Origin: Eledone cirrhosa
Taxonomy: Eukaryota
DNA: 64,000 nt
Direction of reading: 5' to 3'
NCBI GenBank assembly: GCA_964016885.1
Contig: OZ024741.1
Span: forward strand, 382,044,001 to 382,108,000
The notes beneath the pieces are model-generated. The model did no database searches, was not told where the DNA came from, and worked only from the letters and a program-made list of their open reading frames with translations. Shown here in pieces: positions 3,344 through 63,653 of this stretch; the first letter of the stretch is position 1; every line of letters starts with the position of its first letter. Both the position numbers and the translations under genes were made by a program.

Positions 3344-3367
3344 GTTGGTGGTGAAGAGAACAGGCAC

Positions 3368-5031
3368 TTACCTCTCTGCGTCCCGGGTATCGGGCTGCAC
3401 AATTTCCATGAGGGTGGGGGACGAGTTGTTGGGTGGGATGGTTGTTTGTGGAAGTGTGGGGGCATCGGTGTGTTGTGTGGTTGGGGTGTTTGGAGTTGTG
3501 TGGGTGTGAGGGAGGGGGTCGGGAAGTTTTTAGGAGAACACGAAATGGGCCCGGGGGGGGGGGGTACGTCCTCTTTAAAGTTGTTTTTTAGTGTTTAATG
3601 TGTCCTCTGGGACCTTAATCATTTTGAGGTGGGGGAAATCCCCTGCCTGGGTGAAGTTAGGCCCTTGGATTTTTACTAAATTGTTGTTGTACACAATGTT
3701 TAGCAGGCTTTTATTTATTGTGTTTATGTATGTGTATGCATGTTTTTGTTTTTGTGTGGTATTTTTTGTTTGCTGTTGTTGTGTACTCTTTTGTGTTGGT
3801 GTCTGTGTTATGTTTTGGGGAGGGGTTGTTTTCATTTGTGTGCCTGAGGTGTGTTTTTGCTTTTTTTTCTGTTGATTGTGTGGAAGTGCTCCTCCTCGTC
3901 TGACGACGAACGAGGGTCTTCTTCCGCGTTAGAGGGGAGGGGTAGATTTCCGGGTTGTGTTTGCGGTGCGGGTGTTTTGGAAATTGTTTTTTTTTTTACT
4001 GGGGGGATGGGTTGGATATTGTTTTGTTTTGGTTTGAGCTGTGGTTGTTGTTTTTGTAGTGGTGGTTGTGGTGATTGTGTTGGTTGTGCAGTTGTTGGTG
4101 GTGTAGGGAGGATTGGGGTTTTCTTATTAAGTTGAAGAGAGACAGCCCTCAGGTGACCTCTGGCTCCACAGAGGTAACACGAGGGCCGCCTACCATCAAC
4201 GGTAATGTTGATAAAAGTTTCATCATCCAGTATGACGCGTTCAGGGATCTGGGCGATTCTTTCGGGCCTCATTTGAACTACAAGTTCGAGGCTCGTTCCA
4301 CTGAACGCGTCACCCGAGGCCTTTCCCATGGATATTAGTGTGTTATCGTCTAGGTTCAGGAAACCTGTCAATACCCACCATATGTCCATAATCGGAAAAA
4401 TGGTGTGAATTTTTATTTTTTGTGTCCTTCTACCCATGTACGTAGGGTAGAAGGTGTATGCGGTGGATGTGATTGGTTTTATGGACAGTTTCACTGCTGT
4501 GTCCCTGTCCTTCATGAGAATGGATAGACTCCCGCAGAGTCTATCCTTCTGAATGAATATGATGTCTTTCATGACATCTTTTAAAACCAGCTCTATCTCA
4601 CCCTGTGATAGTTGAGCTGGTTTTTTGCATTTGTGTGAGACTGTTCTAAACATGACAATGTTTAGGAGTCTCTGGCTTTTTAGTTCCGAGGGGGAGTGGA
4701 TCGAAAATGATTCATTTTCCCCGTACACTATGTATTTTTTGGCATCTGCCAGTAGCTCCTGCGCTTTGCTTATATCTACTGGCAGATAGTCGGGGGTTTT
4801 CCTTGCCGTCTGGGCGAAGGAGACCTTTTCCTTGTTTGTGTTGCTGTTTTAGTTAGTGGAGTTGTTGTTATCATTGTTGTTGTTATCCCTGTTATTGGTC
4901 TTGTTGTTGTTGTTATTGTTATTGTTGTTGGTGTTGTTTTCGTTCGTAGCATTGTTGTTGTTGTTGTTGTTGCTGGTGCCGCTGGTTGTGTTGGTTTTGT
5001 TCATTGTTTGACACTTTTGTTTTGTTGCCAT
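3368..5031 (-). pseudogene. Tx1 copy 1 ORF1 (gag-like), frameshifted
   Basis: ORFs 4849-5031, 3832-4728 and 3575-3835 are collinear with copy 2 ORF1; it ends MEIVQPDTRDAER*. Confidence 0.85.
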
Positions 5032-5416
5032 GGCAACGTCAAGTTGTCGGTCAGCAGGTGGAGAAAATCCTTCCTCTGATTGACCTTTGTCTTTGACATC
5101 TGCTACTATGAGAGTGGCAGGAGAAAGCTGTAAGCATATCTACCCCTTTCCCCCTTCGAAGTTGGTGAAGAAGATTCAGCCATTTAAAAAAAAAACTGTT
5201 AGCTTTTCAAAAAAAAAACTTTTTGTTAACTATTTCGCCTAAAGGCGTAGACTATTTTGAAAGAACTGACCAGATCAAAATTTGACCTGGCAGTCCCTCT
5301 ACAAAATGGTACAAAAATGAAAGTTTACAGTCAAGAATTTCTATAGAAATTTAAGCAGAACTTATTCAGCAAATTTCACGCGTGTGACCATCCCAGATAT
5401 ATATAGAGATAGATAG

Positions 5417-16724: not shown

Positions 16725-19700
16725 ATGACCCTCCCCAAGTATAACAATATCTGTTTCGACACACGATTTCATATAAAAAACCTCGCTAAACTAATTCATC
16801 GCCGCTACGGCATTAGCTTGTGCCAAGCTGAAAGGTTATTGAAAGACACTGTTTTCTGTTATATAAAAACTACAATAACAACAGAACAAATCCGCTTCTT
16901 AAAACACTGTGTTTCCTCCAAAACATACACAACAAACATATCAAAACAAGTAAATAATTTATTATTGAACAAAACACAAGCCGAACGGCTAAAACACACA
17001 ATAACGGTCAATATGAAAAGAACAACATACACAAAAGTCAACGCACTCTACAGACAAAAACGCATCAACGGTAAGGAAATCCGAAATCTCATCACAGCAA
17101 ACGAGAGAGACGACTTCATGAGCGTCATCCGACGCGAAACGAAATATGCTCAAAACGAATGCTGTAGGCATTTCAAGAAGAAATTAGAATGGATGAATAA
17201 GAAAAAACTACAAGAAAGGAAAATCGAATATTCTCAAAAATACCCAGATAACATCGACAATATCCGTATGACTGATGTAAAACTACCGGAAGAATTTACC
17301 AATGACCACACAGTAAATATCTATGGGAACACTTTAATCAGTGAACAAGAACAACAAATCCTAAGGTTCCCACCAAAATTTGCCATCTACAAAAAGATTA
17401 ACCCTATGGAATGCAAAACGGAGCTGGAAAAGTGTTTCACAAAAATACGTTGGAATGCAAAGGTAAACAACAACAACAATAATAACGGTAGTAGAAATAT
17501 AAACAATAACTCTGGGTATAGAAATAACAACCATAACCATAACAATGGCAGGAAAGTGAGAAATAGTGATAATGGCAATAATACTAGCGATAGACGGAAC
17601 AACAACCACAATAATAATAATAATAGAAACGTTAACCACAGACACAGCAACAGTGACCACAGTAGTAATAACGGTAACAATACGAACAACAACAACAATA
17701 ACCACAGTGGTAATAATGGAAATAGTACATGTAGCAACATCAACAAAACAAGAAACATAATAATAGTAACAACCACAATGGTAGAAATAACAGTAACAAC
17801 AACAACAATAACGGTGAAGTAAACAACAATACATCTAGCAATCATAACAATAATAATAATGCTAATGATAGAAACAACAACAACCACCATGATAACAATA
17901 ATAGCAACACACACAACTATGACGATAGAAATAACGACAACCCCTTAGAGAAACTATTTTTCAACCCAGCTGACAAATCATATAAGATGGGTAATATCTA
18001 TCCTACGAGGTTACCCTTTAATAAAAGAGTTTGCATACCACAGCAAATAGATGACGAGACGGAGGCACAGTTCACCATAGCTAGAAATAAGATTAGACAA
18101 GTAGTAGACAGGTATACTATGAGACAGAGCAGACCAGAGGCCCAACAACTTGGGAGAAAACCTGTAGAAGGCTTGGTTAGCCTCAAGCAGCGCACAAGGG
18201 ATGGTGAGGTAGTGTGTCTACCCACAGATAAGTCTGGTAGGATGTCAATAGATAGCATGCCGAACTACATCGAGGCAATGCAACCCCACATCACCAACAC
18301 GAGCGAAGTTGCACAACTAACACACGATGGGAGAGAAAAAATCCTCAACGCTCACATGATGATGTGGACTGACATCCTAAAGCCAAGCAGACGCACTGCC
18401 AACAACTTCCAGGCGTCTAACAATGGCATACCACCCTTGTATGGGCTACGCAAAGACCACAAGACAGTCGACGACCCGACAACAGGACCACCAACAAGAC
18501 CCGTATGCGGAGCTAATATAGCTAGCAACTACAGGATCTCCTACTTCCTCTCAATGGTTATACGCCCCATAATCAAGATGTCCCCAGATGTATGTGAAAG
18601 TACAGAGGACCTCCTCAGCAGAATCAGTGAGTGCAACAAAAACAGGAGCCTATCCAACTGCATAATAGGCAGCATGGATGTGGTGTCACTGTACCCATCC
18701 ATTAACATTGATTTTGCTATGAAAAGATGTGTGGAGATGATCATTGAGAGTGAGGTGGAGTTCTGCGACATCGACACAGACGAACTGGGCCTCCTACTTA
18801 GACTTACCTACGACACTGACTACCTAGACAGCTATGACCTTGATGTTTCTGCCCTAGTAGACCTATAAGAGGTACACCCCCCACCATAACCTCAATGGCT
18901 AAAAAGACTCCCATAGGAAGGTGGATTGGGTGGACCAAAGCTATACGGACCACCAAAACACTGATCAGGTAAGAAAAATGGTCGCACATGCAATAGGGGC
19001 TAGTATCAAAACTACACTAAAGGGCCACATATTTAAGTTCAATGAGAAAATCTACATCCAAAATGAGGGAGCAGCCATCGGCGTCAGCATAGCTAGTGAT
19101 GTTGCCAACCTTTTCATGGTATGGTGGGAAAGGAGATTTAAAGATCTCCTTAATGAAAGCTTCATAGACCTCATCATGTACTCTCGTTATGTAGACGATA
19201 TCAATATAGTTATAAGAACACCCCCACTAAAGAGCACTAACAAGTTTGATTTAGAACGTAGCACGATGGAAAGCATCCAGCAGATAGCTAATTCCATACA
19301 CCAGAGTATAACTGTAACTATCGGCTTCCCTTCCAAACACCCTAACAATAGCCTACCTGTATTAGACACAGAACTCTGGATTAACACTATAGACGAGAGA
19401 GCCCAAATTCTCCACTCACACTATGCTAAACCCATGGTCTCCAAATACCTGATACTCAAAAACTCAGCAATGTCCAGTAGTGCTAAGTTTAATATTATGA
19501 TCGCAGATTTGGTACGAGTGATGAAGAATGTGTCCAGCATGTGCGACCCAACAGAAATGGAAAGACACATCCAACACTTCATCAACCGCATGCAGTTCTC
19601 TGGCTACAACCAAAGAGACAGAGTCAGAGTATACGAAGGAGCCATGGAAAAGTATAAGACCCTCATAGAACTGGACATGAAAGGAATTTGCTCACTATAC

Positions 19701-20344
19701 AGGAGCAAATCATGGAATAGCTTAGATAGGGCTAGACATAAGATAGGGAAGGCCACATCATGGTACGACAACCAGAGATATCAGAGTGCCATGTTTGTGG
19801 ACGCCACCCCTGGAGGGAAATTAGCTAACCAGTGTAGAACGGCCCTGAGAAAGACCCACTTAAAAATAAAGGTGGTAGAAAAGCCAGGAACCACCATAAA
19901 ATCCCTGATCAGCAAAACCTACCCTTTTAAGAAAACCCACTGTACCAATAGGAAATGTATCATATGTAAGGTGAACCCCGGATAAAATGTAAAACTAGAA
20001 ACGTAGTCTATAGCATAAGATGTACAGAGGGTACTTGCAGAAACATGACAACAACATACATAGGTGAGACAGCTCGTAGCATAGGTGAAAGGATAGACCA
20101 ACACTGGGGGGAACTAAAAGGACGAAAAAACGGGTCAGTACTATACGAACATGCTAGACAACAACATGACGGTAACATAGACAACATAGAAATTAGAATA
20201 ATATCTAAACATAGGAATGACCCAGCAGATAGGCAAATCAGAGAGGCCAGTGAAATAGAAATTAGAAGACCAAAGCTAAACAGAAAGAATGAGTGGAACA
20301 ACAACAACACCCAAACAAACAACACTGACCTAAGAGAAGTATAA
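16725..20344 (+). pseudogene. PLE-B polyprotein (N-terminal domain, Asn-rich tract, RT, GIY-YIG), several frameshifts
   Basis: ORFs 16725-17822, 17987-18868, 18921-19985 and 20045-20344. Confidence 0.85.
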
Positions 20345-25156: not shown

Positions 25157-25229
<73 letters not shown>

Positions 25230-25341
25230 TAAGAGGAATTCCAACTTTGTCTGATTTACTCGTTTTATTTACAATCCTTTAAAATTTATAATGGTATTAT
25301 AATGAAATAGTATGATAGAATATTAAATTCTAAGTGTTAAT

Positions 25342-25380
25342 TGAACAAGTACTTTCATGCTTTCGCAATCTTCAGGTTCA
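25342..25380 (-). ncRNA. Hammerhead ribozyme (inverted PLE-A pLTR)
   Basis: Reverse complement of 27430-27468. Confidence 0.8.
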
Positions 25381-27257
25381 TAATATGTGGTGACAGTCAA
25401 GTTTGCAATTTTCAACTGTAATAAGATGGGTAAATTTCCTACCTTTTATACATTTTATACAGGGAAAAGTGGCTCCAGAGTGCTAAGCCCTGTAAACTGC
25501 ATTTCGGCCAATATAGCTGGTCCAACATGCCGCACCCACCGTCTAAGCAATTTTGTTGACATTATTTTGAAACCACTATGTATTCACATACCCAGTTTCA
25601 TCCGGGATGATATCGACTTCCTGTCCCATCTTCCCAAAACCACGAAAACGAATTCACTTCTACTCAGTTTTGATGTGGTAAGCCTTTACACCAACATTAC
25701 ACATGATTTAGGAATAAAGGCGGTTAAATACTGGGTGGAAAAACATAGAGAAGTGATTCCCATCACATTCACAGCGCCATTTATATTAGACGCAGTTAAA
25801 CTTATTCTGGAAAACAACACTTTCTTCTTCAATGGAAAGAATTACATCCAAATTAGAGGCACAGCGATGGGAACGAAGATTGCTCCCGTTTACGCGAACT
25901 CTGTAATGGAATACTTAGAACAACAACTCTACCAAGAAATAGAGGAAAAATATAGTACTGACTTTAGAAAGTACATTGAAAATCTTGGAAGAGATACCTT
26001 GACGACTGTTTCATCATCTGGACAGAATCTCTAGATACTCTGGATGAGTTCAATATCCTCCTGAATAACCTACACCCATCTCTCCAATTCACAAAAGAGA
26101 TGACTAGGACCAAATTACCATTCCTAGATATAATGATAATCAAAAACGACACCACCATTTTCACGGATATATATTATAAACACACAGACACCCATCAATA
26201 TCTGAATTTTAAGTCGTGCCATCCACAGCATACAAAACACAACATCCCATACTGCCTAGCCAGAAGAATTTGTACCATTGTAGAAGATACGAATACCAGG
26301 TACAAACGCCTAACAGAACTAAGAGAATCTTTGCTCATACAAAAATACCCATCTCTACTTATAGAAAATGGCTTACAGCGCGCTATAAAAATACCTATAC
26401 AACAACATAGGACAACCCAAGGAACAAGAAACGAAGAACTGCTCATACCATTTATAATGACACACAACCCATGTCACCAGAATATCTTCAACACTGCCAA
26501 AACAAACCTACCGATCATTGCTCAAAGTAATGAATTAAAAGGCTTAATCACAGATCGATCTTTGACTCTTAGTAAAAGACAGCCGAAAAATTTGAAGCAA
26601 TTACTAACAAAAGCAAAGTTTGACCTTACCAACAAAGACCAATCATTCACTGTATCTAAATGCAATGATAGTCGATGTCGCAGATGTCAATCCATACACG
26701 CCGGTCAATATATGAAAAGAAAAACTGTAAAAATATTCCCAAATGCAAATATGAACTGCAAAAGCAGAAATCTAATTTACTGCATTAAATGCCCGAATTG
26801 TGAAGAACTATATGTCGGTCAAACTGGAAATGCACTATCGGAATGTGCACGGCTACACCGTCAACAAATCAGAGACCCAAATGTCCGTCAGATACTCCTA
26901 AGTAACCATCTAGCAACATGTGGTCAGTGAATATTTATAATATTCCCATTCTACAAATTACGCAGCCCAAGTGAAATCAAGAGAAAAATCAAAGAAAAGA
27001 ATTTTATTGATTAATTCGAACCCAAGATAAATGAACAATAATAACACTTAGGGCTATTACTTCTACTACCACTATGACTACGACCACTAACATCAACAAC
27101 AACAACAATAATAATAATAATAATAATAAAAGTGATGTTGAGTGTGATGACTAATAGAAAATGCTATTTTCATCATTTCTAAAAATAGCAAAACAATTGA
27201 TGCTTTGGATATGATTAATTATTGGACGTTAGACATGCTCAACCAGCCGTGACGCTT

Positions 27258-27400
27258 AAACCAATCAGCTTTAGTAATTCTGTGAAACTACACACTGATT
27301 GGTCGAAATAAAGTTTGCAGGGCTTAGCACTCAGGAGCCACTTTTCCCTGTATAAAATGTATAAAAGGTAGGAAATTTACCCATCTTATTACAGTTGAAA
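27258..27400 (+). promoter_or_regulatory. Putative Pol II promoter in PLE-A pLTR
   Basis: CCAAT at ~27261, inverted CCAAT at ~27298, TATAAAA at 27351 and 27360, Inr-like ACAGTT at ~27391. TATA and ACAGTT are kept in the diverged copy at ~5650-5690. Confidence 0.45.
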
Positions 27401-27429
27401 ATTGCAAACTTGACTGTCACCACATATTA

Positions 27430-27468
27430 TGAACCTGAAGATTGCGAAAGCATGAAAGTACTTGTTCA
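27430..27468 (+). ncRNA. Minimal type I hammerhead ribozyme in PLE-A pLTR
   Basis: TGAAC-CTGAAGA-TTGC GAAA GCAT-GAAA-GTAC-TT-GTTCA, with palindromic stem III. Confidence 0.82.
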
Positions 27469-27672
27469 ATTAACACTTAGAATTTAATATTCTATCATAC
27501 TATTTCATTATAATACCATTATACATTTTAAAGGATTGTAAATAAAAGGAGTAAATCAGACAAAGTTGGAATTCCTCTTATTAATATAATCTTCTATACA
27601 CAATCATACACACCCGTGTATATTTACCTATCTATATATATATATATATATTCCTATTGTGTATATGCCAAC

Positions 27673-30600
27673 ATGTCTGGAAAGCAACAAATGAAATCAA
27701 CAGAATCAGAAAGAATTCTAAAGGAGATATCATCGAAATTATCAACACTTATCACGATGATGGACACACAATCCTCTATTTTAAAGGAAATAGAAAAACA
27801 ATCTTCAGACGGAAAACTTATAACTGAACATATAAACTCTGAAATTAATAATTTAGCTGAATTTATACCAACAGTTATCAAAGATACAACAGAGAGCCTA
27901 CCACAACCCCCTTGGATGTCAGAAATAAACGAAAGAAATTTGGAAAACAAAACACATCGAATAAGAAAAGAAATGTGGAAGACATGGAAAAAATTCCTTA
28001 ACATAAGAAAACAAAATTTCTGGAAAGCACACAAATGCGAAAAATATGTCGAAACACATTCGAAATGGCTCTCTCTAACGGCACCCATACTCCCTCGTAA
28101 ATACCTAATTACAGAAATTGCAGGAGAACCAGAAGAAGAAACAAAACTCCGATGGGAACTTACATTGACAAAATTCAGGACCAACATCTCCATTTCTGAA
28201 TGTAAACAATCCCGCTACAAAGCCAAATATGAAGCTATTGATACCAAATTGAAGTTGAAATTTCAAAGCTAACGACTGGTATTATAGCTGAAAAACTACG
28301 AGAACTATGGATCAGAGATATCTCAAAAGAAGAAAACAAATCAAGAAAGGTACGGCAGCAGAAACAATTATTTCTCGACGAATATGCTGCAAATTACGGT
28401 AAATACTCTGGAACCCTGAGAAAAAGCATTAAAAGTGGACAATCTCATCAACACAACATACGCCAGAACACGTGCCAACACAAACACTCACCTTACCTTG
28501 AATCAAAGAAGAATTACGGTAATAACTCTTCGCTTTTTCTACAAAAACACCCTATCGCACACAACATGAACAAAAAGCACAAACACGATAGATATTCTTT
28601 TGACCAGACCATGAGAAGTAGTAAAACCAGGAGATTATTCTCAAGATCTCAACAGAGACTACCAACAAGGAATGTGGAAACAAAACGTAGAATAACCAGA
28701 TCACTTTCAAGATCTCAACAGAGATTGCCCACAAGAAACTGGACGAAAAAACGATCTAAACCTGAAAGCAAACCTAGGTCATTTCAACAGATTGTTAAAA
28801 GTAATGCTGACAGGAAGAAAAATAATATACAGAATACCAAAAATAGGACAAAATACATAACGAAACCAAATATAATATCACGACCAAAAGTTCATCAAGC
28901 GAACACCAACAGGAATATAAATCCTAAACAGAGAAAAATCCATTTTTTAATGTCAGGACAACAAAAACCGGAAAAAAGAAAAGCTCCAGGAGGAAACATA
29001 CCCAAAACAACTGTGCACGTAGATCCTAAAATAATTAATTTATCTAAAAGAGATCTTGACAATGATGAAATGCAAATTCTGTCAAAAGGACTGAAATTCA
29101 CACCGACTCCAACAGTCAACCACCAAGAACTGACGGAGGATACCCAATAATTCTGTCGATAATTACATCTTGTAGAATTCTTCGCTGATAAAAGTAATGA
29201 GAGTGATGAATCACTAGTAAAGAATAAATCAAATTTCACCCCGCCAAAAGGAAGAAATATCTATCTCGACCAATACATTGACATCCTGTCTAAATTTCCT
29301 CTTAGACATAATACTAATGTTAGGCCAAACATTAACAAATCAGAAATGTCTGCACTTAAACGTATACAAAATGATAAAACAATAATAATTAAACAAGCAG
29401 ATAAAGGGGGTGCAGTTGTTATAATGGATACTGAATACTACAAGGATTTGGTCGAGGAACAACTGAAAGACACAACATTCTATCATGAAATACCGTCAAA
29501 TATAGACCACAACATCATGAAGAAGATCAACAACCTGGCTTCAAAATACCATAACTCTCTTACTGATAAGGAAAGAGACTACAACACCAATTTTGAGCCG
29601 AAACCCAGCAACCTGTATGGCCTACCGAAAGTTCATAAGTCAAAAGCAATACAACTGGCAGTAAGAGAACAAAACAGTGAGTACATTAAATTATTACATC
29701 CAAAAGACTTAAAACTTAGACCTATTATAGCTGGTCCAACATGCCCCACCCACCGTCTAAGCAATTTTGTTGACATTATTTTGAAACCACTATGTATTCA
29801 CATACCCAGTTTCATCCGGGATGATATCGACTTCCTGTCCCATCTTCCCAAAACCACGGAAACGAATTCACTTCTACTCAGTTTTGATGTGGTAAGCCTT
29901 TACACCAACATTAAACATGATTTAGGAATAAAGGCGGTTAAATACTGGGTGGAAAAACATAGAGAAGTGATTCCCATCACATTTACAGCGCCATTTATAT
30001 TAGGCGCAGTTAAACTTATTCTGGAAAACAACACTTTCTTCTTCAATGGAAAGAATTACATCCAAATTAGAGGCACAGCGATGGGAACGAAGATTGCTCC
30101 CGTTTACGCGAACTCTGTAATGGAATACTTAGAACAACAACTCTACCAAGAAATAGAGGAAAAATATAGTACTGACTTTAGAAAGTACATTGAAAAATCT
30201 TGGAAGAGATACCTTGACGACTGTTTCATCATCTGGACAGAATCTCTAGATACTCTGGATAAGTTCAATATCCTCCTGAATAACCTACACCCTTCTCTCC
30301 AATTCACAAAAGAGATGACTAGGACCAAATTAACATTCCTAGATATAATGATAATCAAAAACGACACCACCATTACCACGGATATATATTATAAACACAC
30401 AGACACCCATCAATATCTGAATTTTAAGTCGTGCCATCCACCTCATACAAAACGCAACATCCCATACTGCCTAGCCAGAAGAATTTGTACCATTGTAGAA
30501 GATACGAATACCAGGTACAAACGCCTAACAGAACTAAGAGAATCTTTGCTCAAACAAAAATACCCATCTCTACTTATAGAAAATGGCATACAGCGGGCTA

Positions 30601-31208
30601 TAAAAATACCTATACAACAACTTAGGACAACCCAAGGAAGAAGAAACCAAGAACTGGTCATACCATTTATAATGACACACAACCCATGTCACCAGAATAT
30701 CTTCAACACTGCCAAAGCAAACCTACCGATCATTGCTCAAAGTAATGAATTAAAAGGCTTAATCACAGATCGATCTTTGACTCTTAGTAAAAGACAGCCG
30801 AAAAATTTGAAGCAATTACTAACAAAAGCAAAGTTTGACCTTAACAACAAAGATGAATCATTCACTGTATCTAAATGCAATGATAGTCGATACGGCACAT
30901 GTCAATCCATACACACCGGTCAATATATGGAAACAAAAACTGGAAAAATATTCCCAAATGCAAATATGAACTGCAAAAGCAGAAATCTAATTTACTGCAT
31001 TAAATGCCCGAATTGTGAAGAACTATATGTCGGTCAAACTGGAAATGCACTATCGGAACGTGCACGGGTAAACCGTCAACAAATCAGAGACCCAAATGTG
31101 CGTCAGATGTCCCCAAGTAACCATCTAGCAGAAAATTACACAGTCCATGTGAAATCAAGAGAAAAATCAAAGAAAAGAATTTTATTGATAAATTCAAACC
31201 CAAGCTAA
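27673..31208 (+). pseudogene. PLE-A polyprotein with long N-terminal region, RT, Cys linker and GIY-YIG; frameshifted
   Basis: ORFs 27616-28272, 28566-29150 (INLS..LSKGLKFTP) and 29346-31208 (ADKGGAVV, YGLPKVHK, RPII, RYLDD, YVGQT). Confidence 0.9.
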
Positions 31209-31610
31209 ATTAACAATAATAACACTTAGGGCTATTACTTCTACTACCACTATGACTACGACCACTAACAACAACAACAACAACAACTACAACAATAATA
31301 ATAATAATAAAAGTGATGTTGATGGTGTTGATTAATAGAAAATGCTATTTTCATCATTTCTAAAAATAGCAAAACAATTGATGCTTTGGATATGATTAAT
31401 TATTGGTCGTTAGACATGCTCAACCAGCCCTGACGCTTAAACCAATCAGCTTTAGTAATTCAGTGAAACTACACACTGATTGGCCGAAATACAGTTTGCA
31501 GTGCTTAGCACTCTGGAGCCACTTTTCCCTGTATAAAATGTATAAAAGGTAGGAAATTTACCCATCTTATTACAGTTGAAAATTGCAAACTTGACTGTCA
31601 CCACATATTA

Positions 31611-31649
31611 TGAACCTGAAGATTGCGAAAGCATGAAAGTACTTGTTCA
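31611..31649 (+). ncRNA. Hammerhead ribozyme in 3' PLE-A pLTR
   Basis: Identical to 27430-27468. Confidence 0.82.
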
Positions 31650-32022
31650 ATTAACACTTAGAATTTAATAATCTATCATACTATTTCATTATAATACCAT
31701 TATAAATTTTAAAGGATTGTAAATAAAAGGAGTAAATCAGACAAAGTTGGAATTCCTCTTATTAATATAATCTTCTATGCACACCCGTGTATATTTACCT
31801 ATCTATCTATATATATATATATATATAATCTAGCTGTCGTCTGTTCTACAGAGTGGATGTAATTCACTTCGCGCAGAAGTTTTGTTCAAATTTATTGCGG
31901 AAATTTTGTGAGTTCAAATTTAATTTTGATACTATTGTGTAGCTTGACCCCCCGTCTGAACTGTCAGGCGGTGGGTCAGCTCATCTTTACCCCTCCTAGA
32001 GGTGAAAAACCTGTTTTAAGAA

Positions 32023-33974
32023 ATGTTGTGGCAAAAAAATTTCAATCGTCTGACAGAAATGTTAAACGAAGCGAACGAAAATAGTGGTGGGGGGACAGCG
32101 GTAAGAGTTGTAAGCTCGCACGATTTAGTCCCCCCTTCCTTCCCAACTAACGTCATAGAGAAGGAAGGAAAAAATAAAATAAAAACAGACGAATCTGCGA
32201 AGAAAAATGACGAAAACACAAATCTGGACATGGTTTCCAACAACGAAAAAAAAAAATTTGAAAAATTGCATGACAATACTAATACCACAAACAAAGACAC
32301 AACACACACAAAAATAACATTTGAAAATAATACCATAACAGAAAGCAAAGCAGACGACAGAGTCAACAAGATTTCATTTGCACAAACAACAAAGAAATCT
32401 TTGACATATATACCTGAACATATTTCAGATGTGGCACGAAGAATCACAGACGCCAAACAATACATAAGTGAAGGAGAGCATGGTATTTTATCGGTAAAAA
32501 TGCCTCAAGATCTCACCAAAGACATTGAAAGTCGAACGGTCGTGTTCCGCACCATCAACAACACTTCAAAAAAACCTGAACAGCCAACTCAGGCAGATAT
32601 CAAAACAGTACTCACAGAAGTACTTAATGAAACCACTTTCATAAGAAAAGACAGACTGTATGGAAGCCTAGCAATTATTATGAAGAACGAATCGGCGGCA
32701 AAAAAAATGTGCTATGTCACCGATTCGTTCAAATTTTTTTACCTTTTATCCATCTTATATGGGTAAAAGAAGGTAAAAGAACTCAACGCATATGGCTGGA
32801 TGCAATGATGCCAGATGTAGACTACTGCTGGCTCATAGCTGGCTTCATCGATCCAGTGAATGACAACGTGATTTCCATTGGGAAAACCACAGGCAATGCG
32901 TTCAGTGGAACAGGTATAGAGCTGGTAGTGCAAATGAAGCCTGAACGCATCGCCCAAATACCCGACAGAATCCTATTAGAGGGCCACGGGTATATAAACA
33001 TTAGCGTGGAGGGGAGAAGGCCGTCCTGTCATATCTGTGCAGGCAGAGGGCACCTGAAGGCCGCTTGTCCCCAACTCACCAAAAAGAAAACCCTGCTACC
33101 AACACCAGCTCTACCACCACCACAACAACAGATAAACAAACAACCAAACGCAATCCCACCCAACCCGTCCCTCAGTAAAACTACACCACCACCACAACAC
33201 AAACAGTCACAACACATTACCCCAAAACAAAATACAGGCCCACCCAATCCCTCACTCAATAAAACAACACAACCACCGCAGATACAACACACAACACAGT
33301 CTAACATAGTGACATCCATCTCCCCCACAAAGAAAACCAACACGGAAACATTACCAGCAAACATACCTCTTCCCTCCAACGCTGAAGATAACCCAACGAA
33401 TTCGGAGGAAGAAACGGAGTCCTTCAGACAGATTAAAAGGAAAAAAAGAAAACATGTGCAAAACACACAAGGCCAAACAACCCCCACCCAAATCTCAACA
33501 CAATCCAACAAAACAGAAAACACCCCTCCAGCAACAAACAAAACCAAACCTGCCCCTCCCCTCTTCGAAACACTCACGCCATCCGAAAAAAAAATATTAC
33601 ACTATACTTACATCAATAGAAACAATAATAAATTAAATGAACTCATATACAATAATCCTTCGGTACAAACCGAAGGTGTAAACTTTGTTTCTTCAGAAAA
33701 CTACCCACATTAAACATTAATAAAGATCCCAATGAACCTCTACCAAAAACTAAAAAAGGATTTTAAGGAGGACGTAGGACCACCCTCTGTCAAACCCATA
33801 AACCGCGTCCTACTAAAAATCTTTCCCCCTCCCCTTCCCCTCCCCAACACAACTCCAAACACCCCAACCCCACCACACACTGACGACCCCACACCACCAC
33901 AAGACACCCCTTCACCCAACACCCCCGACCCCATGGAAGTCGTGCGACACGAACCCCGGGAAGCGGAAAGGTAG
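32023..33974 (+). pseudogene. Tx1 copy 2 ORF1 (gag-like), frameshifted
   Basis: ORFs 32023-32766, 32709-33713 and 33732-33974, ending EPREAER*. Confidence 0.88.
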
Positions 33975-34007
33975 GTCTCTACACTCTCCTTTGGCTCTGC
34001 CGCCCAC

Positions 34008-37000
34008 ATGGATGTGTTAAGAGTAGGATATTTGAATGCACGTGGCCTGGGCTCAACTTGGAAGCAAGCAAAGCTTCTAAATGACCTCAGGTCATGTGGT
34101 ATAAATGTAATGGTTATCTGTGAGACTCGAATCATCGTCGTGCGGTAGCTGGCCCCTACCTTCGATGCCTTTGAGGTGCATGCATCTCTCTGTCAACCTG
34201 GAGGTGGGGGTGGGGTTGTCGTACTGCTGCAAAAACACCTGGGTCTTGCCGTACAGGTTGTGCACTCGGACCCGGAGGGTCGTTTGTTGGTGCTAGACGT
34301 TGGCAGTAGTGAAGGTGCGGCCTTGAGACTGGTCGCCGTCTACTCCCCTTTCGGAGCTGAACGGCCCGACTTCTTCCAGCATTTGGAGACTTTTCTGGGA
34401 ACGTCGCGTTCCCTGCTTCTAGCGGGGGATTGGAATGACATCCTAGATGCACATTGGGACTATGCAGGAGCATGCCCTAATAGAGGGGGTGTAACAGCCT
34501 CAAGGGGTTACTCGACCGTTTTAACTTGGTCGATAGATATCGACTAGATTTTCCAACTGTGCCTACCTGGACTTGGAGAAACCACAGTGGTCAATCTAGA
34601 TCGTACTTAGATAGATTCTTAGTTAGAAGTAAGGATAGGGACATATTAAGCTGTCCAGAAATGCGCACGGTTGGCTACACGGATCACAAATTAGTGACCT
34701 GCGTAGTCAATCTCGAGAAAACACATAAACAGCGTCCCGGTTACTGGAAACTTAATTTGTCTTTACCGGCAAAAGAGACTTACAGAAACCGGATTAGCAG
34801 ATTAGTTAAGGAGAGGTTGACGGGTGCAATCGTTAACAACCGATGGTGGGCATCTCTCAAAAGAGAGATTAGAACAGAATCAATAAGTTATAGCAAGATG
34901 TTAGCTGCCGATAGGAATAGAAACGAGAAAGAATTAACAGGTAAATTAGAAGAGGCAATCAAAAGCGAAGATGTGGCCAGAGTGCTGGCATGGAGGACGG
35001 CCTTGAACCAGTTTTTCGATGCAAAGCACGAAGGCGGCGTCATTCGAAGTAAAATACGTGCTCTAGGTAATGAGGGGGCCAAAGCCGATGGCTGGGCCCG
35101 CGTGACAGAAGCTAAGAATGGAAATCGATCCACCATCCGGTCGTTGCAAGACGAAGATGGACGGGTGATCCGGGAGCCTAAGCAGATGTGCGAGGCCTTT
35201 CAAAGGCACTTTGCCCGATTGTTCGGGGGAGGCGAGGGTCCGGGCGGGGGCGTGGATATCGGTCCATACCTCGACGGCCTGCCGCGTCTCTCGAGCGAAG
35301 AGGCAGAGTCCTGCGAAGGACCAATCTCGGCTGATGAGATCGGAGATGCGCTGAGCCAATGCAGCAGACGCAAATCTCCAGGTCTCGATGGTATACCTTA
35401 CGAACTTTATTTAGCAATGCCGGTCTTCTTCTCCGAACTCCTCGAAGCGGTCTACTGCAATTGGCAGCAGAACGGGAGAATTCCTTGATCTGTAGCCAAG
35501 GGCGTAGTCACGCTGGTGAAGGAAGGACGAGAACAAGGGAGATAGTATAAATAATTTTCGGCCCATAACCCTGCTAAACACAGAGTTAAAGATTTTGGCC
35601 AAGGTGTTAGCAAAGACGTTGGAGCTTGTCGTGGGTGGCCTGGTGGGAGATGCGCAGACATGTGCTATCCCATCCAGGTCCATTCACGATAACCTCCACC
35701 TCATGCGATACATCATAGAGAGGGTTGGCAACAAACCCGGCTTCGGTGGGGCCCTGATCAACTTGGATCAGTCTAAGGCCTTCGATAGGGTCGACCATGG
35801 TTACCTGGATGCGGTGCTAGCGGCGGCTGGGTTCGGTCCTGTTTTCAGAGGCTGGATCACTGCCTTACATAGCAACCACATCTGTTCTAGGATCAAGGTG
35901 AACGGCTACCTTTCGAAGCCGTTCGAAATCACACGATTCATTCGACAAGGGTGCCCTCTCTCCTCCCTTCTGTACGTATTGACTCTCGAGCCTTTACTGA
36001 GGAAGTTGGAGTTGTTGCAGGGTATCCCCCTGGAACCAGGATTGAGCAGAGCGGTGTCGGCCTACGCCGATGACGTAACAGTAATAGTATCGACCGACTC
36101 GGAGATCGAGGCGATCGGTACCTTACTGGAGGAATACGAAAGGTTTTCAAGAGCGAAACTGAACCGGGAAAAATCCATCTGGCTGCAACTCGGAACGTGG
36201 AGAGGCAGACCGATGCCTCCCGACGGTGTCGTCGGACACTGGACGGAGGGCCCGGTAAAGTTGCTTGGGGTCTGGTTTGGACCGAACCTCCAGGTGAAAA
36301 AGAACTGGAACGAGGTTACGAACAAGGTGTTTGCACTAACCCAGAAATGGGCCAAGTGTAAGCTGTCCCTAAAAGGGCGGGCGGAGGTGGCGAACATTTA
36401 CATAGCGTCCGTCACTTACTACCGCCTTGCCCTAAGGAAACACTCACCACCATGGAACGCATGCTCTTCCAATTTCTTTGGAAGAAGCGCCCTCCTATGG
36501 TGAGAAGATCCATCTGCTTCCAACAACCTTCGAAAGGAGGGCTGGGGATGCCGTGGTTGATGATGCGTAGGCACGCGTTAAGGTTACGGCACCTACAGGT
36601 ATTCCTCACTGGTCAACTGGTGTGGGCTCCGTTCGTGAAACGAGCCTTTCCGAGACTCGTCTCGCTCACCGAGCTGCAGTCCTGGGTCAAGCAAAGGTCC
36701 GGAAAACTGGGAGACTGGCACACTGAGTGTGCTCAGGCGCTCAGGGCTCTCTGGCAAGCGTGCCAGGCCGTCGGTGGAGAATCCACCTCATCATTCTATA
36801 GAGGGCTGGTGGCTAGCAGGGGCGATGACACCCTTGGAGAGTCGCTGGACATGGAAGAGGACGAACTGGCCAGCCTGTTCGGTGGGACTTTCGGCCCGGG
36901 ACCAATGGACAACTTCCAGAAGTCACTAGCCTGGCAGTGCTACCGAGGGGCTCTACCCGTTCGAGAGAGGCTCTACAGACACGGGCGCCCGGGCAGGGAT

Positions 37001-37432
37001 CCCTCAAAAAAGATTTGCTCTAGATGCGTGCGTCACGAAGAAACCGTTGCGCACGCATTGGTGCAATGTCCGGGCGTGGCTGATCTGTGGGGCTACGCCG
37101 AACGACTGCTGTCGCGGGTGGCGCCGATTCAATTGACCGCCGAGTCCGTGATGACAATCAAACCGCCTCCCCTCTTCACAAAGGAAGCAAAGGCGGTTTT
37201 TCTGTGCGTAATAGCCATGCTTAAAGAGGTTGTTTGGTGGACACGATTGAATGGTCTGAGGTCAGGCAACTTCCTCTCTGGCCATAGTCTGGTCTACTTC
37301 TTCCGATATCACTTCGGAAGAAGGATAAGAATGGAGAGGGAGGTGCTTGGCCACTGGCAGTTTTATGAAAGGTGGGTGATAGTGGCGAGAATGGCTCGTG
37401 TAAATGGGCCTTCTCTGTATACCATCCTGTAG
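34008..37432 (+). pseudogene. Tx1 copy 2 ORF2 (APE-RT-Zn finger), disrupted
   Basis: ATG 34008 (MDVLRVGYLNARGL); fragments 34176-34547, 34526-35488, 35595-36503 and 36452-37432. Confidence 0.92.
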
Positions 37433-37647
37433 GTAAAGAAGTAAAGGAGAGGGGAGCACCTTCTCCATGTGCTCCCCGGGCAAAGGATTGCACACTTTTT
37501 CGGGGATGTGTGCAACCCCCATCACGTCCCCTCCCTTTTGAGTTTATTTTCGATTATTTTCATTTTATACCCTTTTTACTCGATTGTATGTAAACTCCCC
37601 CTTTGTATTTGTCCCTTCTTTTTATGCCTTTATGGTAAATAAAGAAA

Positions 37648-45000: not shown

Positions 45001-48000
45001 TTGAAATGGGGACAGCCTATGCTTAACCTATCTATTTTCCTACAAATACCCCATCTAGATATGATCTGGATGACCCGATGCGGTTTGTCCATGTCCACAT
45101 TGGCCCATTCGGGAAATCCAGACAGTAGAAACCGTCTAATCAGGTTTGCGAGGCTTTTACACCCTCCTCCTCTATTCGCTAATCCCACACAGTCCCAGCG
45201 TGCATCTAAGATCCTGTTCCAATCGCCCACTAACTTCCCCCCGATCCAGGACGGCTGGGAGATGCGTTCACATCGTAGCCACCGGAAGATCGGTGCGAAG
45301 GCTCGTGCTTCGGATAGTCTGGTCTCGCTGATGGCCACCACGTCTATGTTTAGTGACCTGAAGTCGTTGAGCAGGTAGCCCTGCTTCCATGCTGACCCCA
45401 GGCCAAGCGCATTTATGCTGCCTATTCTGAGTGAGGTCATGTTGAAAAGGAGTGGAGAAATATGGGAAATACCACTTACCTTACTTCTCATAGCGGAAGG
45501 ATGGCTTCCCCATCCTTCTGACAGCTTGTGGCCTCCTGCGGAAGGATGTCCCTATAAATCCTCCTGCAGAGTGTTTGTCGGAAATGTCCGATGTCCTTGG
45601 AGAATTTTTGTTTTAGTGTCGTGTACGGTTTCTGTGTGATGCGAGTGATTTGTATGTGTTGAGGTCGTGTGAACTTTTGGGTTGTTGTGTAGTCTTTTTC
45701 TGTGATGCTGGTGTTGTGGTGGATGTAGTGTAATAATTGGTTGTTGTTCAAATTTAATGCTGTGTACTGTGTATCATTTTGGTTGTACGGTTTTGTTGGC
45801 GTTTGTTGTGGGTTTGTTTCTGTTTCGCTTATTGGTGATTTTAGTGGAGTTGGTGATGGCGGTTGTGCGGTTAATGATGGTGATGGTGTTGGTGTTTGTG
45901 GTGATGGGGCTTGTGATGCCGGTGTAGGTGGTGGCATAGCTGTCTTAACTTTTTTGTTTGTTTGCTTATATGTTTCCCCTTGTATTTTTTTTGGAGGGCA
46001 AAGGAAGATGATTTTGGTGGGGGCCTTCATTTTTCCTTTTTCTTTTTTCCTGATACCATTTCCCACTCCGCCTCCTCGTCACAATCTGTCTCTAGTTGGT
46101 TGAGATAGGTCGGAGAGTGGAAAATCCTCCACAGGCGTTAGTTTTTGTTGTGGCGTGGTGGATGGTGGAGGCGATGGCACTAATTCTGGCGCGGTGGGTG
46201 GTGGTGGTGTTGGTTTTGCTACTGTTGCTAGGATTGTTGCTGCTACAATTGCTGCTTATGTTGTTACTACAGTTGTTGCTGACATTTCTGCAGCTGGTGG
46301 TTTTGATGGTGGGTGGGAGAGGTGCCCCCAATCTTTAGCCTGAGGGCAGGAAGCCTTTAGGTGGGTTCCTTCACCACAAACGACATACGTAGGCCTTCTA
46401 CCCTCAACGATTACGGGGAGGCTTCTGCCGTCATTGAGGTCTATCACCTCTGGAATTTCCTGAATGCTTTTTTGGTCGACTTGGATCAGGAGCTCCATCC
46501 CAGATCCGGACCAGTTCTCCTGCTTTTCTTTTGTTACCTCAATTATTTTCGTGTTGGCCTCGATGCCGGTGAGGACAGCAGCCATTAGCCAGAATTTCAA
46601 TGGCCGGCGGAACGTAGGTCACCTTGACCTTCACGAGACTCTGACCACAATAGCTTGGGAGGAGTGTGAACTCGTCACTTCTTAATGGTGCCATGGAGTG
46701 ATCTCTAGTTTCCTGTGAAGTTCCAAAGAACACGTCCACGGTTCCATATTTGGGCCCACGTCTGATGTGGGTTTTTTTTCGCCCAAACATGTCCCAACGT
46801 TTTTGTATCTGGGACTCGGATGCCCGTTCCACTCGGCATGATTTTGTTTTTATCGTCCCATATGATACGGTGCATAGGCATCGATGCTCCATTTTATTAT
46901 ATGGGGAGGGGGGAAGGGGGTTAATCTTTTTTTTACCATTCGCTTGGCTCCATTCAATTCATCCTGGCTTACCTCTATTATTTAGCTTTTCTTGGTTGCT
47001 TTGGCAAATGACACATTTTGTTTTGCGCTGGTGTTGTCGTTGTTGTTGTTATTATCATTGTTGTTGTTGTTGCTGTTGTTGTTATTGTTATTTTTGTTAT
47101 TGTTATTTTTAGTTTCAGTTGTGGTGGTGTCAGTGGTGTTCGGCGTGGAAGAGTTGATTCTGGGTGAATCTATTTCGATGTCACGAGATAATGATTTCAT
47201 TTATTGGCCAAAAGGGCCGACATATAGGGGACAATACAAAAGACTGGGACACTGGGGTTTTACAGAAAAATCAAGTAAACAATATGAATCACAAAAAGAA
47301 ATTAACAATAAAACTACAACAAAAAAAAATTCCCCAATAGGGGGGATGACCACCCAGGCTTCGCTCAGGTACCCCACCAATCCTGAACGACCCGACGCTT
47401 CGAGAGCACCCTGGAAAGCACCCCCTCTCCTCCTCAAATTTACCTACCTACAGCCGCATAACCAGAGTATGTCAACTCACACGGGCCATTCTCGCCACAT
47501 TCACCCACCTTTCAGCAAATGTACTGGGGGGGGGGGGGGGCAGCACTTCTCTCTCCACCCTCACCTTCCATTCCAAGTGAAACTTGAAAAAGTTGATGAG
47601 GGATTGGCCGAAGAGAAACGTGTGTTCAGTCCTTTCAACCTCATCCACCATACAACCTCTTTCGCTTCTGCCAGCAGACAGAGGAAAATTGCCTGCTCTT
47701 CCTCGCCAAAAGAAGGCCGCGGGTGAGATCTTCATTATGGACTCGGCCGAGAGGCAGATCCGTTCTACACGCGACAACAGCTGTTCAACATAGCTCCACA
47801 AGTCAGTAATGCACGGACACTGGACGAATGCGTGCAGAACGGCTTCGTCGCTCTGCGCGCATTTCGGGCAGGTCCATCTGACAGCACTTCCGTGCCTGTA
47901 GAGTTTAACTCGAACCGGCAAGCGAGCGATTTTTGGAAATTATCCATCGTCCACGACTCGAAAGTCCTCCGGTACAGACTGGTTAGTTCGACTTCGTTGA

Positions 48001-51000
48001 CTCCCAGAGCCTCTCTGGGTGCGTCGTCGCACTTGCCCACCACTGATCCTCTACAGAACTCGAGAGTGGAAGTTCCACTGACCGCATTGCCCGCCTGGTA
48101 GGGGGAAGTGAGTGCCTGGCAACATTCCAGATTCCAGTCACCCAGTCTCGGTCTCTTCTTGACCAAGGACTGCAGCTCAGTCAAAGAAACGAGCTGCGGA
48201 AAGGCCCGTGTGACAAACGGTGACCACACCTGTTCACCGTTTAGGCAGAATATCTGGAGATGCCGCAGCCGCAGCCTCATCGCGTGCCTGCGCATCATTA
48301 GCCACGGTATGCCCAGCCCTCCACGTAGAGGGTGCTGGCAGCAGATGGACCGCCTCACCAGCGGACCCTGACCCCTCCACAAGAATTTGAAGAGGAGCCG
48401 CTCCAAGATGGCGAGGCGCGAACGGGGGAAAGGGACGACGGTCAGGCGGTAGTAGATGACGGACGCGATGTACGCGTTCGCCACCTCCGCCCGACATTTC
48501 AGTGATAGCTTCATCCCATCCCATTTCTGGGTGAGACTGGCTACCCTGCCCGTCACCTCGTCCCAATTCTTATCCACCTGGAGGGCTGGCCCGAACCAAA
48601 CCCCTAGCAACTTTACCGGTCCGCCCGTCCAACACTTAACGACGCTGTTGGACGGCATGGGCTTGCCTCTCCAGGTGCCCAGTTGCAAGCCCACCGACTT
48701 TTCCGGGTTAAGTTTTGCTCCAGTCAACCTTTCATATTCCTCCAATAAATTGCCGACCACCTATATTTCTGATGTGTCCGACACCATCACGGTGATGTCG
48801 TCCGCATAAGCCGACACAGCCTTTCCACGTCCCGGTTCGAGCGGGATGCCTTGCAACAGGTCCAGCTTCCGCAGTAAAGGCTCGAGAGTCAATACGTACA
48901 GAAGGGAGGAGAGAGGGCACCCTTCACGGACCGATTGGGAGACCTCAAATGGTTCCGAGAGGTGGCCATTAATTTTAACCATCGAGCAGGTGTTGCTGTG
49001 CATTGCTGCGATCCAGCTTCTGAAGACGGGGCCAAAGCCAGCCGCCTTGAGGACAGCCTCCAGATACCGATAGTCGACCCTATCGAATGCTTTCGATTGA
49101 TCTATGCAGCCGACAAGTGCATCCTGAATCTCAGCTGAAGTAATTGGCCTTTCGCAGCGCCCAGCGTCAGCCGTCGAGAGTTGCGACACCATCGAGGTAG
49201 GGACTGAAGTCCGCCATCATCTCTGACCCGCCGCTTCCCCCGAACAACCGAGCAAAATGTTGGCAAAAGGCCTCACACATCCGCTTGGAATCGCTCAGCT
49301 CGTGTCCGTCTCGGTCTGTCAAAAACCGAATCGTGGTTTTATTACCACGCTACGCATCTGCCACGCGGGCCGATCGAACAGCTTTGGTTCCCCCGTTTCT
49401 TAGAGCACGCGCCTTAGCTCTGACAATGCAACCTTCGTGTTTCACATTGAATGAATGGTCTAATGCCATTCTCGCCGCTAGCACGTCAGTTGCAATTCCA
49501 CTACCAATAGCCTCGTCTAACTTATCTACCAACCCCCCCTCCTTTCTATTTTTCTCTAACGCTACTTCTTTGCTAAACTCTATCGACATTACCCCACCAT
49601 TTATTGTTGACGACTCCCCCGTCGACTTTTTCTTAACTAAATTGTTGACCTAGTCCCTGTAAGCCTACGTGCCGGAAATGACATGTTTAGTTCCAATAAC
49701 CAGGTCCTAACCTACGCGTCTTATCTTGGTCGACCATACAGATCACAAACTTGTGATCTGAATAGGCGACTGTTTCAAAACTTGACAGCTTACACTATTT
49801 CTGTCTATTTTCCTAATGAATATCCTGTCTATATACGATCTAGATGACCATATGCGGTTAGCCCAGGTCCACACTGGCGCATTAGGGAAATCAAGTCGGT
49901 ACCTGTCAGACAGTTGGAACTGGCTGATCAGGTTCTTGAGGTTTTTGCACCCCACGCTCCTATCGGATACTCCCACACTGTCCCAGCGTGCGTCTAAGAT
50001 GCCGTTCCAGTCCCCCACTAACAGTAAAGGGTTAGACGTGCCCAGAAAGGCTTCCAGGCGTCTAAAGAGGTCCGGCCGTCCTGCCCCAGTAGGAGCATAG
50101 ACGGCCACCAGTCTAAAGGCACCAGCTTCGTTATTGTTCACGTCCAGGACCACCAACTTCCCGTCCGGGTCCCGGAAGATCGACCTCACCTCGAGATCCA
50201 GGCCTTTCCTAAAGAGCACTGCCACCCCGCCTCCTATTCCCGGCCGGCTATCAGATGCAAAGATCTGATAGTCGTCGAAAATGGGGGCTAGTGCGCGCGT
50301 GTCGGAAATCCTGGTCTCGCTGACGGCAATTACATACATTTATAGAGACCTGAGATCATTGAGCAGATGACCCTGTTTCCAGGACGATCCCAAGCCTCGA
50401 ACATTTAAACATCCTAATCTTAATACGGCCATGTTGGAAGGTTAAAAGAGAGAGAGGAAATGTTTACTTACCTTCCGGGCTCTTGTGAAGGTCGGGTAGT
50501 TCGACCTCCATAGTTGGTGGGGTTTCTTTTGGGAACCCCTTTAAAAGTCTTGAAGTTGGTTTTACGTCCGGGGTTCACACGTCCCGAGGAAATCTCTCTC
50601 GTATTTCTTTGTATAATTCGATCGACATTCGCACCAGAACCAAATCTTCCGGCACGCGAAATTTGGTCGATTTAAAACTTTCCCCCTCTTTTTGTATATT
50701 TTCACTTCTTGCCACGAGGGTAATCAGTCCCTTGTTGGTCCTCCCGACGAGCACGAAGTTTTGTATGTTTTGTTGGTGTGATTTTATTTGTTTGCGTGGC
50801 TGTGGTTGTGATGGTTTTGGTGGTGTTGTTTCGGTTGTGTCTGTGTTTGTTGTGAGTGCGGTGTGTGTGGTTTCAGATGTTTGTGTGTATATTTGTTCTT
50901 ACGTCTGTTTAGGTTGTTTGCGTAATGGTGGTTTTGATGTTGGTGTTATTGGAGAGATGTTTGCGTGGGTGGTGTCTGCGTTTTTTATTGTGGGTGATTT

Positions 51001-61233: not shown

Positions 61234-61869
61234 CTAAGGCGGGTAAAATTCCCGAGATCCATGGACGAGTTCTCTCCAGCGGTCTCTGTCCCTCATTATC
61301 GCTGCCATGTCCTGCATCTCCAACAGACCAGTGTCTGTCCTTAGGGCATCAACATACGTTAACCTTGGTCTTCCTCTTCTAGTGTGTCCATGTAGGGGCT
61401 CCCAAAGGAGTACTGAGTGCAATGTCAATTCTGGATGTCGGTGAGCATGTCCAGCTAACCTCAGTCTCCTCTGTGTCACTTTTGAGCTGACTTTTGGGAT
61501 GCTCTCATACAGCTCTGAGTTTTTCATCCTCAGTGTATACTGATTAATGTTCAGAGCCATCCTCAGCATTCTCGTGTAGCGCCCATCCACCATCTGAGTG
61601 AGTTTTTTGGTCAGTGTCCAAGTCTCAGACCCATACAGCAGCACAGACTCCACTACAGCAATGAAGAGGCGGATTTTCAGGTCTCTACGAAGGTCCGACT
61701 TCCACACCGATCTCAAGCTGTGGCACGCCGCCCAGGCCTTGCTCTTCCTCTCAACCACATCATCTTCCGTATTCCCAATCTTTGCTCCCAAATACAGGAA
61801 GTCCTCAACCAATTCCAGCGGCTTCCCGCCTACATTAGTGATCCCCTCTGGCTTCTCAACATTTATGGG
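61234..61869 (-). mobile_element. RTE-clade LINE 3' end
   Basis: VEDFLYLG, LLYGSETWTL, RRLRLAGH, GRPRLTYVD and DRDRWRELV; ends at a TA tract. Confidence 0.92.

Positions 61870-63599: not shown

Positions 63600-63653
<54 letters not shown>

Follow-up and report, generated by a model that had tools for sequence, protein, structure and literature searches.

The window analysed here, a stretch of 64,000 nucleotides from Eledone cirrhosa (assembly GCA_964016885.1, contig OZ024741.1, positions 382,044,001 to 382,108,000), contains four copies of a long interspersed nuclear element (LINE) that are mutually 64–80% identical. Specifically, we describe the boundary between their two open reading frames (ORFs), where a U1-type 5' splice site lies in one arm of a predicted long-range helix that closes ORF2. 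An APE endonuclease, a reverse transcriptase (RT) and a zf-RVT region are encoded by these LINEs, with pieces of the set detected in the copies. An intact relative has an ORF2 of 1145 amino acids that matched PF03372 (E 2.6e-8), PF00078 (E 5.7e-26) and PF13966 (E 3.9e-5, under that profile's curated cut-off). ORF1 is separate from ORF2, and a CxxCxxxxHxxxxC knuckle was present in all six aligned ORF1s, while Pfam zf-CCHC was found weakly in one of three. The nearest named protein match to the 1145-residue ORF2 was an Argonauta protein (62%); the sole match bearing the TX1 name was a plant protein at 23%. The elements are ~5.8 kb long, carry microsatellite tails and are stacked in tandem via (ATT)n or (TATC)n joints, and (TATC)n or (TA)n adjoins approximately 12 of 19 5'-truncated copies (counted by eye). 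By their ORF2 domain set and ORF1 knuckle they are LINEs of the Tx1/L1 group, and they share the preference of the Tx1 clade for repeat targets. Kibi and Koshi are Tx1-clade non-long terminal repeat (LTR) retrotransposons that target microsatellites (PMC4494074), and "L1-Tx1" families have been tabulated for Octopus vulgaris (PMC13282606). Two versions of the ORF2-start motif occurred at 7282 and 2555 places in the 3.0 Gb host genome. No relatives of these LINEs were found in viral contigs.

The coordinates of the features are listed in Table 1. Copy 2 belongs to a family whose best 40 matches are 98–100% identical and for which 906 exon-end motifs were counted. Two lesions interrupt its ORF1, a frameshift near 32760 and an in-frame stop codon at 33711–33713. 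The ORF2 of copy 1 starts at 3343 (minus strand), and the 3' end of this copy is replaced by other sequence near 630. In copy 3 (ORF2 at 45440–42331, minus strand), the spacer of one family is joined to the 3' end of another, or the copy has decayed. Families of the copy 3 and copy 1 types share the same spacer and ORF2 with differing 5' untranslated regions (UTRs) and 3' ends, which points to swapping of modules between families.

Table 1 Features of the LINE copies in the window (a slash marks the predicted exon–intron boundary).
Feature	Position	Strand	Remark
Copy 1 donor GAG/GTAAGT	3366..3374	-	Phase 2
Copy 2, full-length Tx1-like LINE	31827..37645	+	Young family; between (TATC)n/(TA)n tracts
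Copy 2 GTGAGT in 5'UTR	31908..31913	+	
Copy 2 ORF1	32023..33974	+	Conserved core, CCHC knuckle, low-complexity tracts
Copy 2 5' arm	33935..34023	+	ORF1 end, donor, pyrimidine spacer, first ORF2 codons
Copy 2 U1-type 5' splice site AAG/GTAGGT	33968..33976	+	Overlaps ORF1 stop; phase 2
Copy 2 ORF2 (APE endonuclease, RT, zf-RVT)	34008..37432	+	Broken; loop closed by predicted helix
Copy 2 3' arm	37413..37499	+	Last ORF2 codons, stop, purine-rich 3'UTR start
Copy 2 ORF2 stop TAG, then G TAA	37430..37436	+	Candidate acceptor
Copy 2 local 3'UTR hairpin	37451..37477	+	9-bp stem; competitor of long-range helix
Copy 2 AATAAA	37638..37643	+	Ahead of (TA)n tail
Copy 3 donor AAG/GTAAGT	45474..45482	-	Arms pair poorly
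Copy 4 3' arm	47356..47465	-	ORF2 stop TAG ending 47448
Copy 4 5' arm	50414..50507	-	Donor AAG/GTAAGT at 50471 (phase 1); ORF2 start 50432

Conservation was examined on one copy from each of 20 families, which are 70–99% identical to the reference copy in ORF2 and fall into two main clades; the families were chosen by motif variant along contig C1 and hence non-randomly. Distant relatives with ~24–32% identity served as controls (36 for the donor test and 18 for the arm-pairing test). Splice sites were scored with a crude, untrained frequency model.

At the end of ORF1, all four copies in the window carry the donor motifs described in the first-pass annotation, namely GAGAG/GTAAGT in copy 1 (3371, minus strand), GAAAG/GTAGGT in copy 2 (33971, plus strand), GTAAG/GTAAGT in copy 3 (45479, minus strand) and GGAAG/GTAAGT in copy 4 (50471, minus strand). 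AG/GTAGGT was kept at 30 of 30 loci of the copy 2 family, and 45 of the 49 starts in one batch scored >7 bits, the remainder looking like damaged copies. The donor GT was invariant in the 20 families of this genome, and an exonic AG or GG was retained in every one of them with variants that are compatible with U1. The ORF1 stop overlapping the donor is TAA, TAG or TGA depending on the family. The donor lies in phase 2 in 13 families, in phase 1 in six (including the family designated K) and in phase 0 in one, where it is retained though ORF1 continues through the spacer. Among the distant relatives, a site of at least 8 bits near the ORF2 start was present in 3 of 36, as against 5.3% of random windows. 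A 10-bit donor-like site in one of these 36 (L161) lies ~8 codons before the stop of the longest open frame without a helix, and it was discounted because this frequency is close to the 1% background. The donor conservation that had been claimed from the window alone was therefore borne out, since it holds in 20 of 20 families and in three phases, far above chance, and is as a rule lacking in the 36 distant relatives. Selection on a U1-type donor at the ORF1 stop is well supported, and pairing with U1 would account for the site where coding need and chance do not.

The first-pass annotation had overlooked a predicted long-range helix over both splice sites, while its donor part stands. The stretch from the end of ORF1 through the donor and the spacer into the start of ORF2 is complementary to a second one, which comprises the final ORF2 codons and the first ~70 nt of the 3'UTR; the spacer is pyrimidine-rich and the start of the 3'UTR purine-rich. 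The helix is predicted to extend from ~35 nt inside ORF1 to ~15 nt inside ORF2, with ~66 pairs in copies 2 and 4. Its arms are 3.4 kb apart, so that all of ORF2 would form one loop, and besides the two splice sites it would cover the spacer together with the stop of ORF1 and both the start and the stop of ORF2. In copy 2, the 66 inter-arm pairs gave a gain of -27.3 kcal/mol over the separate folds; 38 of the 39 pairs made by the 5' arm of copy 4 in its whole-RNA fold were long-range, and the duplex of copy 3 was weak (-17.3 kcal/mol). Between none and all six of the donor bases are paired, depending on the family, and all six are complemented by the 3' arm in the family that ends ORF2 in TAA. 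Rfam gave no match in copy 2.

The pairing was specific to the arms of the same element. Cognate arms had a mean of -41.6 kcal/mol and swapped arms -31.8 kcal/mol in the 20 families, a difference reached by none of 50,000 permutations overall and by 0 and 11 of 50,000 within the two clades. The 18 distant relatives gave a null result (-13.4 for cognate and -13.0 for swapped arms; 6081 of 20,000 permutations). The differences between cognate and swapped arms in the seven closest family pairs were -14.5, -12.7, -5.5, -5.2, -1.0, -0.1 and +0.7, favouring cognate pairing in six, two of them marginally. In all 20 families the joint fold was better than folding each arm locally, and in 14 of the 20 it also exceeded every one of 25 spacer shuffles. 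For 9 of 16 families, the spacer had no better partner anywhere else in the element. Unconstrained folding of RNAs of 3.3–3.7 kb returned the helix in five of seven elements. In family X1, the 3' arm was found first, and the spacer found later paired with it at -38 to -46 kcal/mol in all five complete copies. Folding of alignments yielded double-sided changes in two subgroups, 4 in one (row-permuted control, 3 of 300) and 2 in the other (control, 22 of 300), and only 8 consensus pairs in the large indel-rich clade (control, 52 of 300). Compensatory pairs were found in both clades and within ORF2 codons: nucleotide 5 of ORF2 and position -8 from the stop form C:G in 17 families and A:U in two, with a mismatch in one. 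The segment pairing the start of ORF2 with its end passed the permutation test overall and in one clade and failed in the other (6000 of 20,000). Overall, the two arms very probably co-evolve, and the folding models describe a conserved long-range helix whose complementarity is kept by compensatory change and is absent in the controls.

The candidate acceptor is the end of ORF2, which is TGTAG at 37432, 47448 and 42331 in copies 2, 4 and 3 as had been noted. AG is present at the stop in 19 of 20 families. The crude model places the ORF2 end first or second among ~260 AGs in eight of 11 families belonging to one clade, which favours the switch proposed below; the best-scoring acceptor of that clade is often a CAG 7 nt upstream of the ORF2 stop. 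In one copy of the copy 2 family the candidate ranked 9 of 253 AGs by the same model. Since the first and last ORF2 codons covary, the pyrimidine tract and the CTG before the stop have a second explanation, and the helix by itself can explain the acceptor-like letters because pairing with the ORF2 start accounts for them too. Another acceptor-like site lies ~250 nt before the ORF2 stop; it is the top-scoring one in the TAA family and scores high in several others, and it is a candidate alternative acceptor.

Our preferred reading, to which we assign a probability of roughly 40%, is that the donor in one arm and the ORF2 stop and 3'UTR start in the other form a timing switch between unspliced full-length RNA and an RNA containing only ORF1. 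From the conserved donor, the complementarity and the covariation of the arms, which are seen in the sequences themselves, we infer the U1 and splicing steps of this model. U1 would bind the donor as it is transcribed, and the candidate acceptor and the 3' arm would emerge together 3.4 kb later. If the pyrimidine spacer paired with the purine tract first, the helix would close over the two splice sites and drive U1 off, and the RNA would stay unspliced and serve as template both for translating ORF2 and for retrotransposition. Were the spliceosome to win instead, ORF2 would be removed and an ORF1-only message produced; this spliced RNA, lacking the 5' arm and facing a preference of the proteins for RNA in cis, would seldom be copied back. 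Removal of ORF2 as a single intron is possible. The fuller version, in which the 3'UTR arm acts as a built-in anti-splice-site that zips the ends of ORF2, evicts U1 and sets the share of spliced ORF1-only message, making the RT gene a structure-gated intron, is doubtful.

Several observations weigh against the timing switch. TAG is the ORF2 stop in 15 of 16 families, and 18 of 40 two-fold purine synonymous sites are equally conserved, so the proposed selection on the acceptor does not stand out from the synonymous-site background. The copy-3-type family, which has the largest number of exon-end matches counted (2549), ends ORF2 in CTG TAA, and in four families of the other clade the ORF2-end acceptor ranks 33–92 by the crude model. 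The first-pass annotation had framed the whole of ORF2 as a spliceosomal intron whose splicing regenerates the ORF1 stop. The joined sequences do give such a stop in copies 2 and 4; among the 18 families counted, which exclude those with TAA or phase 0, 11 have a stop no more than three codons from the predicted joint, and random phase would give 8.5. The gain from a spliced message is also not obvious, since ORF1 comes first in the RNA and already ends in a stop. As for the helix, the permutation significance is inflated by the relatedness of the families, the own arms of families F and S pair no better than the arms of others, and family S fails the shuffle control (18 of 25). Whole-RNA folds of copy 2 and of a second copy of its family lack the helix, the local hairpin winning, and the donor variant predicted for X1 was wrong at +4.

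The same holds for spliced copies in the genome. Retrotransposed copies joining ORF1 to the 3'UTR at the exact junction, the search for which had been proposed in the first-pass annotation, were absent from nine genome scans, with exon ends counted as 906, 2549 and 1703 in three families. The 906 exon ends of the copy 2 family gave no spliced copy in a proximity scan. Scans based on the purine tract returned none (1703 exon ends), none and one unspliced copy, the last (L367) being identified as unspliced because it differs by point changes only. Filters for non-spacer sequence behind the exon end, which were designed to pass the predicted joins and pass about half of arbitrary ones, gave 2, 32, 6 and 0 matches in four families, and all were spacer variants except one 24-nt fragment. 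This fragment (L149:1493-1517) is an ORF1 end that stops at the donor, located at the 5' junction of an unrelated repeat; it is not a spliced copy and may be captured filler or a trace of a chimeric RNA. One further candidate had an internal deletion distant from the donor (L295), and ORF1-only elements hinted at by short 3'-end spacings were 5'-truncated insertions. An ORF1 word search returned no matches, and no junction was visible in the C-termini of relatives from an ORF1 profile search (6 of 150 listed). In contigs from four runs of unrecorded kind, no 33970–37433 joint was present among the best 15 of 108 joints on copy 2, and an inserted repeat filled the best 15 of 142 at a locus with two families; neither result weighs either way. 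The missing retrocopies are only moderate evidence because RNAs that lack ORF2 depend on copying in trans while L1 proteins favour their own RNA (PMC5860796). In sum, the ORF2-intron claim is partly supported, through its donor.

Two other explanations are compatible both with the timing switch and with each other. One is that U1 binds without splicing, aiding elongation or guarding against early termination, until the 3' arm evicts it, so that cleavage at the terminal AATAAA and export would be confined to complete RNAs. We consider it rather unlikely, although it would account for a perfect donor without a selected acceptor, including the TAA family, which it fits better than the splicing switch does. 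A second GTRAGT near the 5' end of many families, not found spliced in the one family scanned, is consistent with it, and a splicing-independent role of U1 has been shown for EVD (PMC5580714). On the other hand, ORF2 holds only 0–1 AATAAA per family representative, so there is little canonical signal to suppress, and pairing of the donor is incomplete in many families. The other is that the helix acts in the cytoplasm and the donor has a use of its own: ribosomes terminating on ORF1 would reinitiate less at the ORF2 start, the RNA would evade decay because its ORF1 stop is brought close to the poly(A) tail, or the RT would recognise the RNA as full-length by its helix. The coverage of the ORF1 stop, spacer, ORF2 start and ORF2 stop by the helix favours this idea, as does a family that appears to reinitiate at ATA. 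Such a role is unlikely, however, as it leaves unexplained a donor consensus that is fixed, exonic AG included, in three phases amid covarying paired neighbours. In the ATA family (L253:6538 on the minus strand, L249-L255 and L273), ATA replaces the ORF2 ATG in 10 of 10 copies, ORF1 crosses the spacer with its stop overlapping the ATA, and no in-frame Met precedes codon 35; in one copy an ORF2 of 1145 codons is intact, and non-AUG termination-reinitiation is therefore suggested.

An ordinary alternative intron, with the donor, acceptor and regenerated stop all selected and the complementarity incidental, would agree with the conserved donor, with the AG at the stop and with young family K, which switched its donor phase and thereby matches the downstream stop that relatives sharing its 3' end do not match. 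It is nevertheless improbable, with the acceptor and regenerated stop at background and an arm covariation that is hard to call incidental. The motif might instead act on DNA as a transcription-factor site, for which the human L1 5'UTR donor within a RUNX3 site is a precedent (PMC5860796). The 5'UTR GTRAGT, mostly without exonic AG, would suit this, but the ORF1-end site keeps its exonic AG or GG and U1-compatible variants throughout the families, making such a role very improbable. Least credible is a fusion of ORF1 to ORF2 by way of a short intron that would begin at the donor and end at an AG close to the ORF2 start, within its first codons. Such an intron would be in frame in copies 1 and 2 and the spacer is rich in pyrimidines, yet the first AG is in frame in only 7 of 20 representatives and the introns would be 39–61 nt. 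A fused RNA would moreover retrotranspose in cis, and no fused copy passed filters made to admit one; the missing retrocopies accordingly weigh more against this intron than against an ORF2 intron.

The arrangement can be compared with known spliced retrotransposons. The intron of Drosophila copia is ~3 kb and spans all of pol, and EVD has a conserved donor at which U1 also blocks early termination; Ty1/copia elements thus combine a strong donor, a weaker acceptor and a double role of U1 (PMC5580714). The first-pass annotation had drawn an analogy with copia and EVADE, and it agrees in part: a U1-type donor after the gene of an RNA-binding protein, conserved here in 20 of 20 families, is shared with the spliced gag RNAs of copia, EVD and BARE1, whose weaker acceptor has a candidate counterpart here. 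Those are LTR elements with one ORF, and the analogy is imperfect because their Gag needs splicing for its stop codon (PMC5580714) while ORF1 here has its own. The Eledone LINEs further differ from copia and EVD in that their splicing is only predicted and a covarying helix lies over both sites. Human L1 also produces spliced RNAs, the SpIREs and SpORF2, from a 5'UTR donor that is conserved and mostly unused, for which sequestration by RNA structure was suggested (PMC5860796; PMC2896524). Its products lose the promoter or ORF1 rather than ORF2, and they were judged dead ends, with genomic copies amounting to ~2% of full-length insertions (PMC5860796; PMC2896524). Kibi/Koshi-type Tx1 elements share the two ORFs, the APE-RT-zf-RVT ORF2 and insertion into microsatellites, while the accessible part of that report mentions neither a donor nor a long-range helix (PMC4494074). 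The main text on the O. vulgaris families has no mention of splicing, introns or ORF1 (PMC13282606). An ORF1-end donor or an ORF2-closing helix in a LINE was not found in the literature searched, whose scope excluded subscription journals and Repbase-type reports.

Distant arms control which message or protein is made in the long-range pairings of RNA viruses and in the pre-mRNA structures that mask splice sites. The loop in the Eledone LINEs differs from these in being exactly one ORF, and we know of no LINE with such long-range pairing.

The 5'UTRs of the clade have features of their own. In many of them, unrelated in sequence to one another, GTRAGT occurs at a distance of 30–85 nt from the 5' terminus, mostly without an exonic AG, and may be a promoter-proximal U1 site or a DNA element; a scan of one family for a 5'UTR intron (denominator uncounted) gave one match, which was not at the donor. 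Stable hairpins of unrelated sequence precede the ORF1 start in most families, and strong acceptor-like sites of the 5'UTRs sit in hairpins (by eye). The 5'UTR hairpin of copy 2 is at 31940–31985, and none of 200 shuffles folded as well. Other RT-bearing repeats of the window are at 5397–7665, 16704–19985, 25162–31834 and 61519–64000, and include a nested or duplicated set with 90–95% identity and an Exo_endo_phos_2 element. Outside the window, a short repeat of very high copy number was seen inside the ORF1 of a copy-4-type element (L159:4821-5010).

How LINE RNAs with two ORFs and no introns escape splicing and decay, and how they balance ORF1p against ORF2p, is known mainly from mammalian L1. 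The Eledone elements offer young copies by the thousand, spread over 20 or more families, with a helix defined to the base and swappable donor variants, and the question is therefore directly testable by compensatory mutants. If splicing occurs, this would be the first conserved ORF1-only spliced message of a LINE within the literature searched; if it does not, the element would borrow U1 and then displace it by means of its own RNA. In both cases the genome contains strong donors by the thousand, and these may affect host transcripts.

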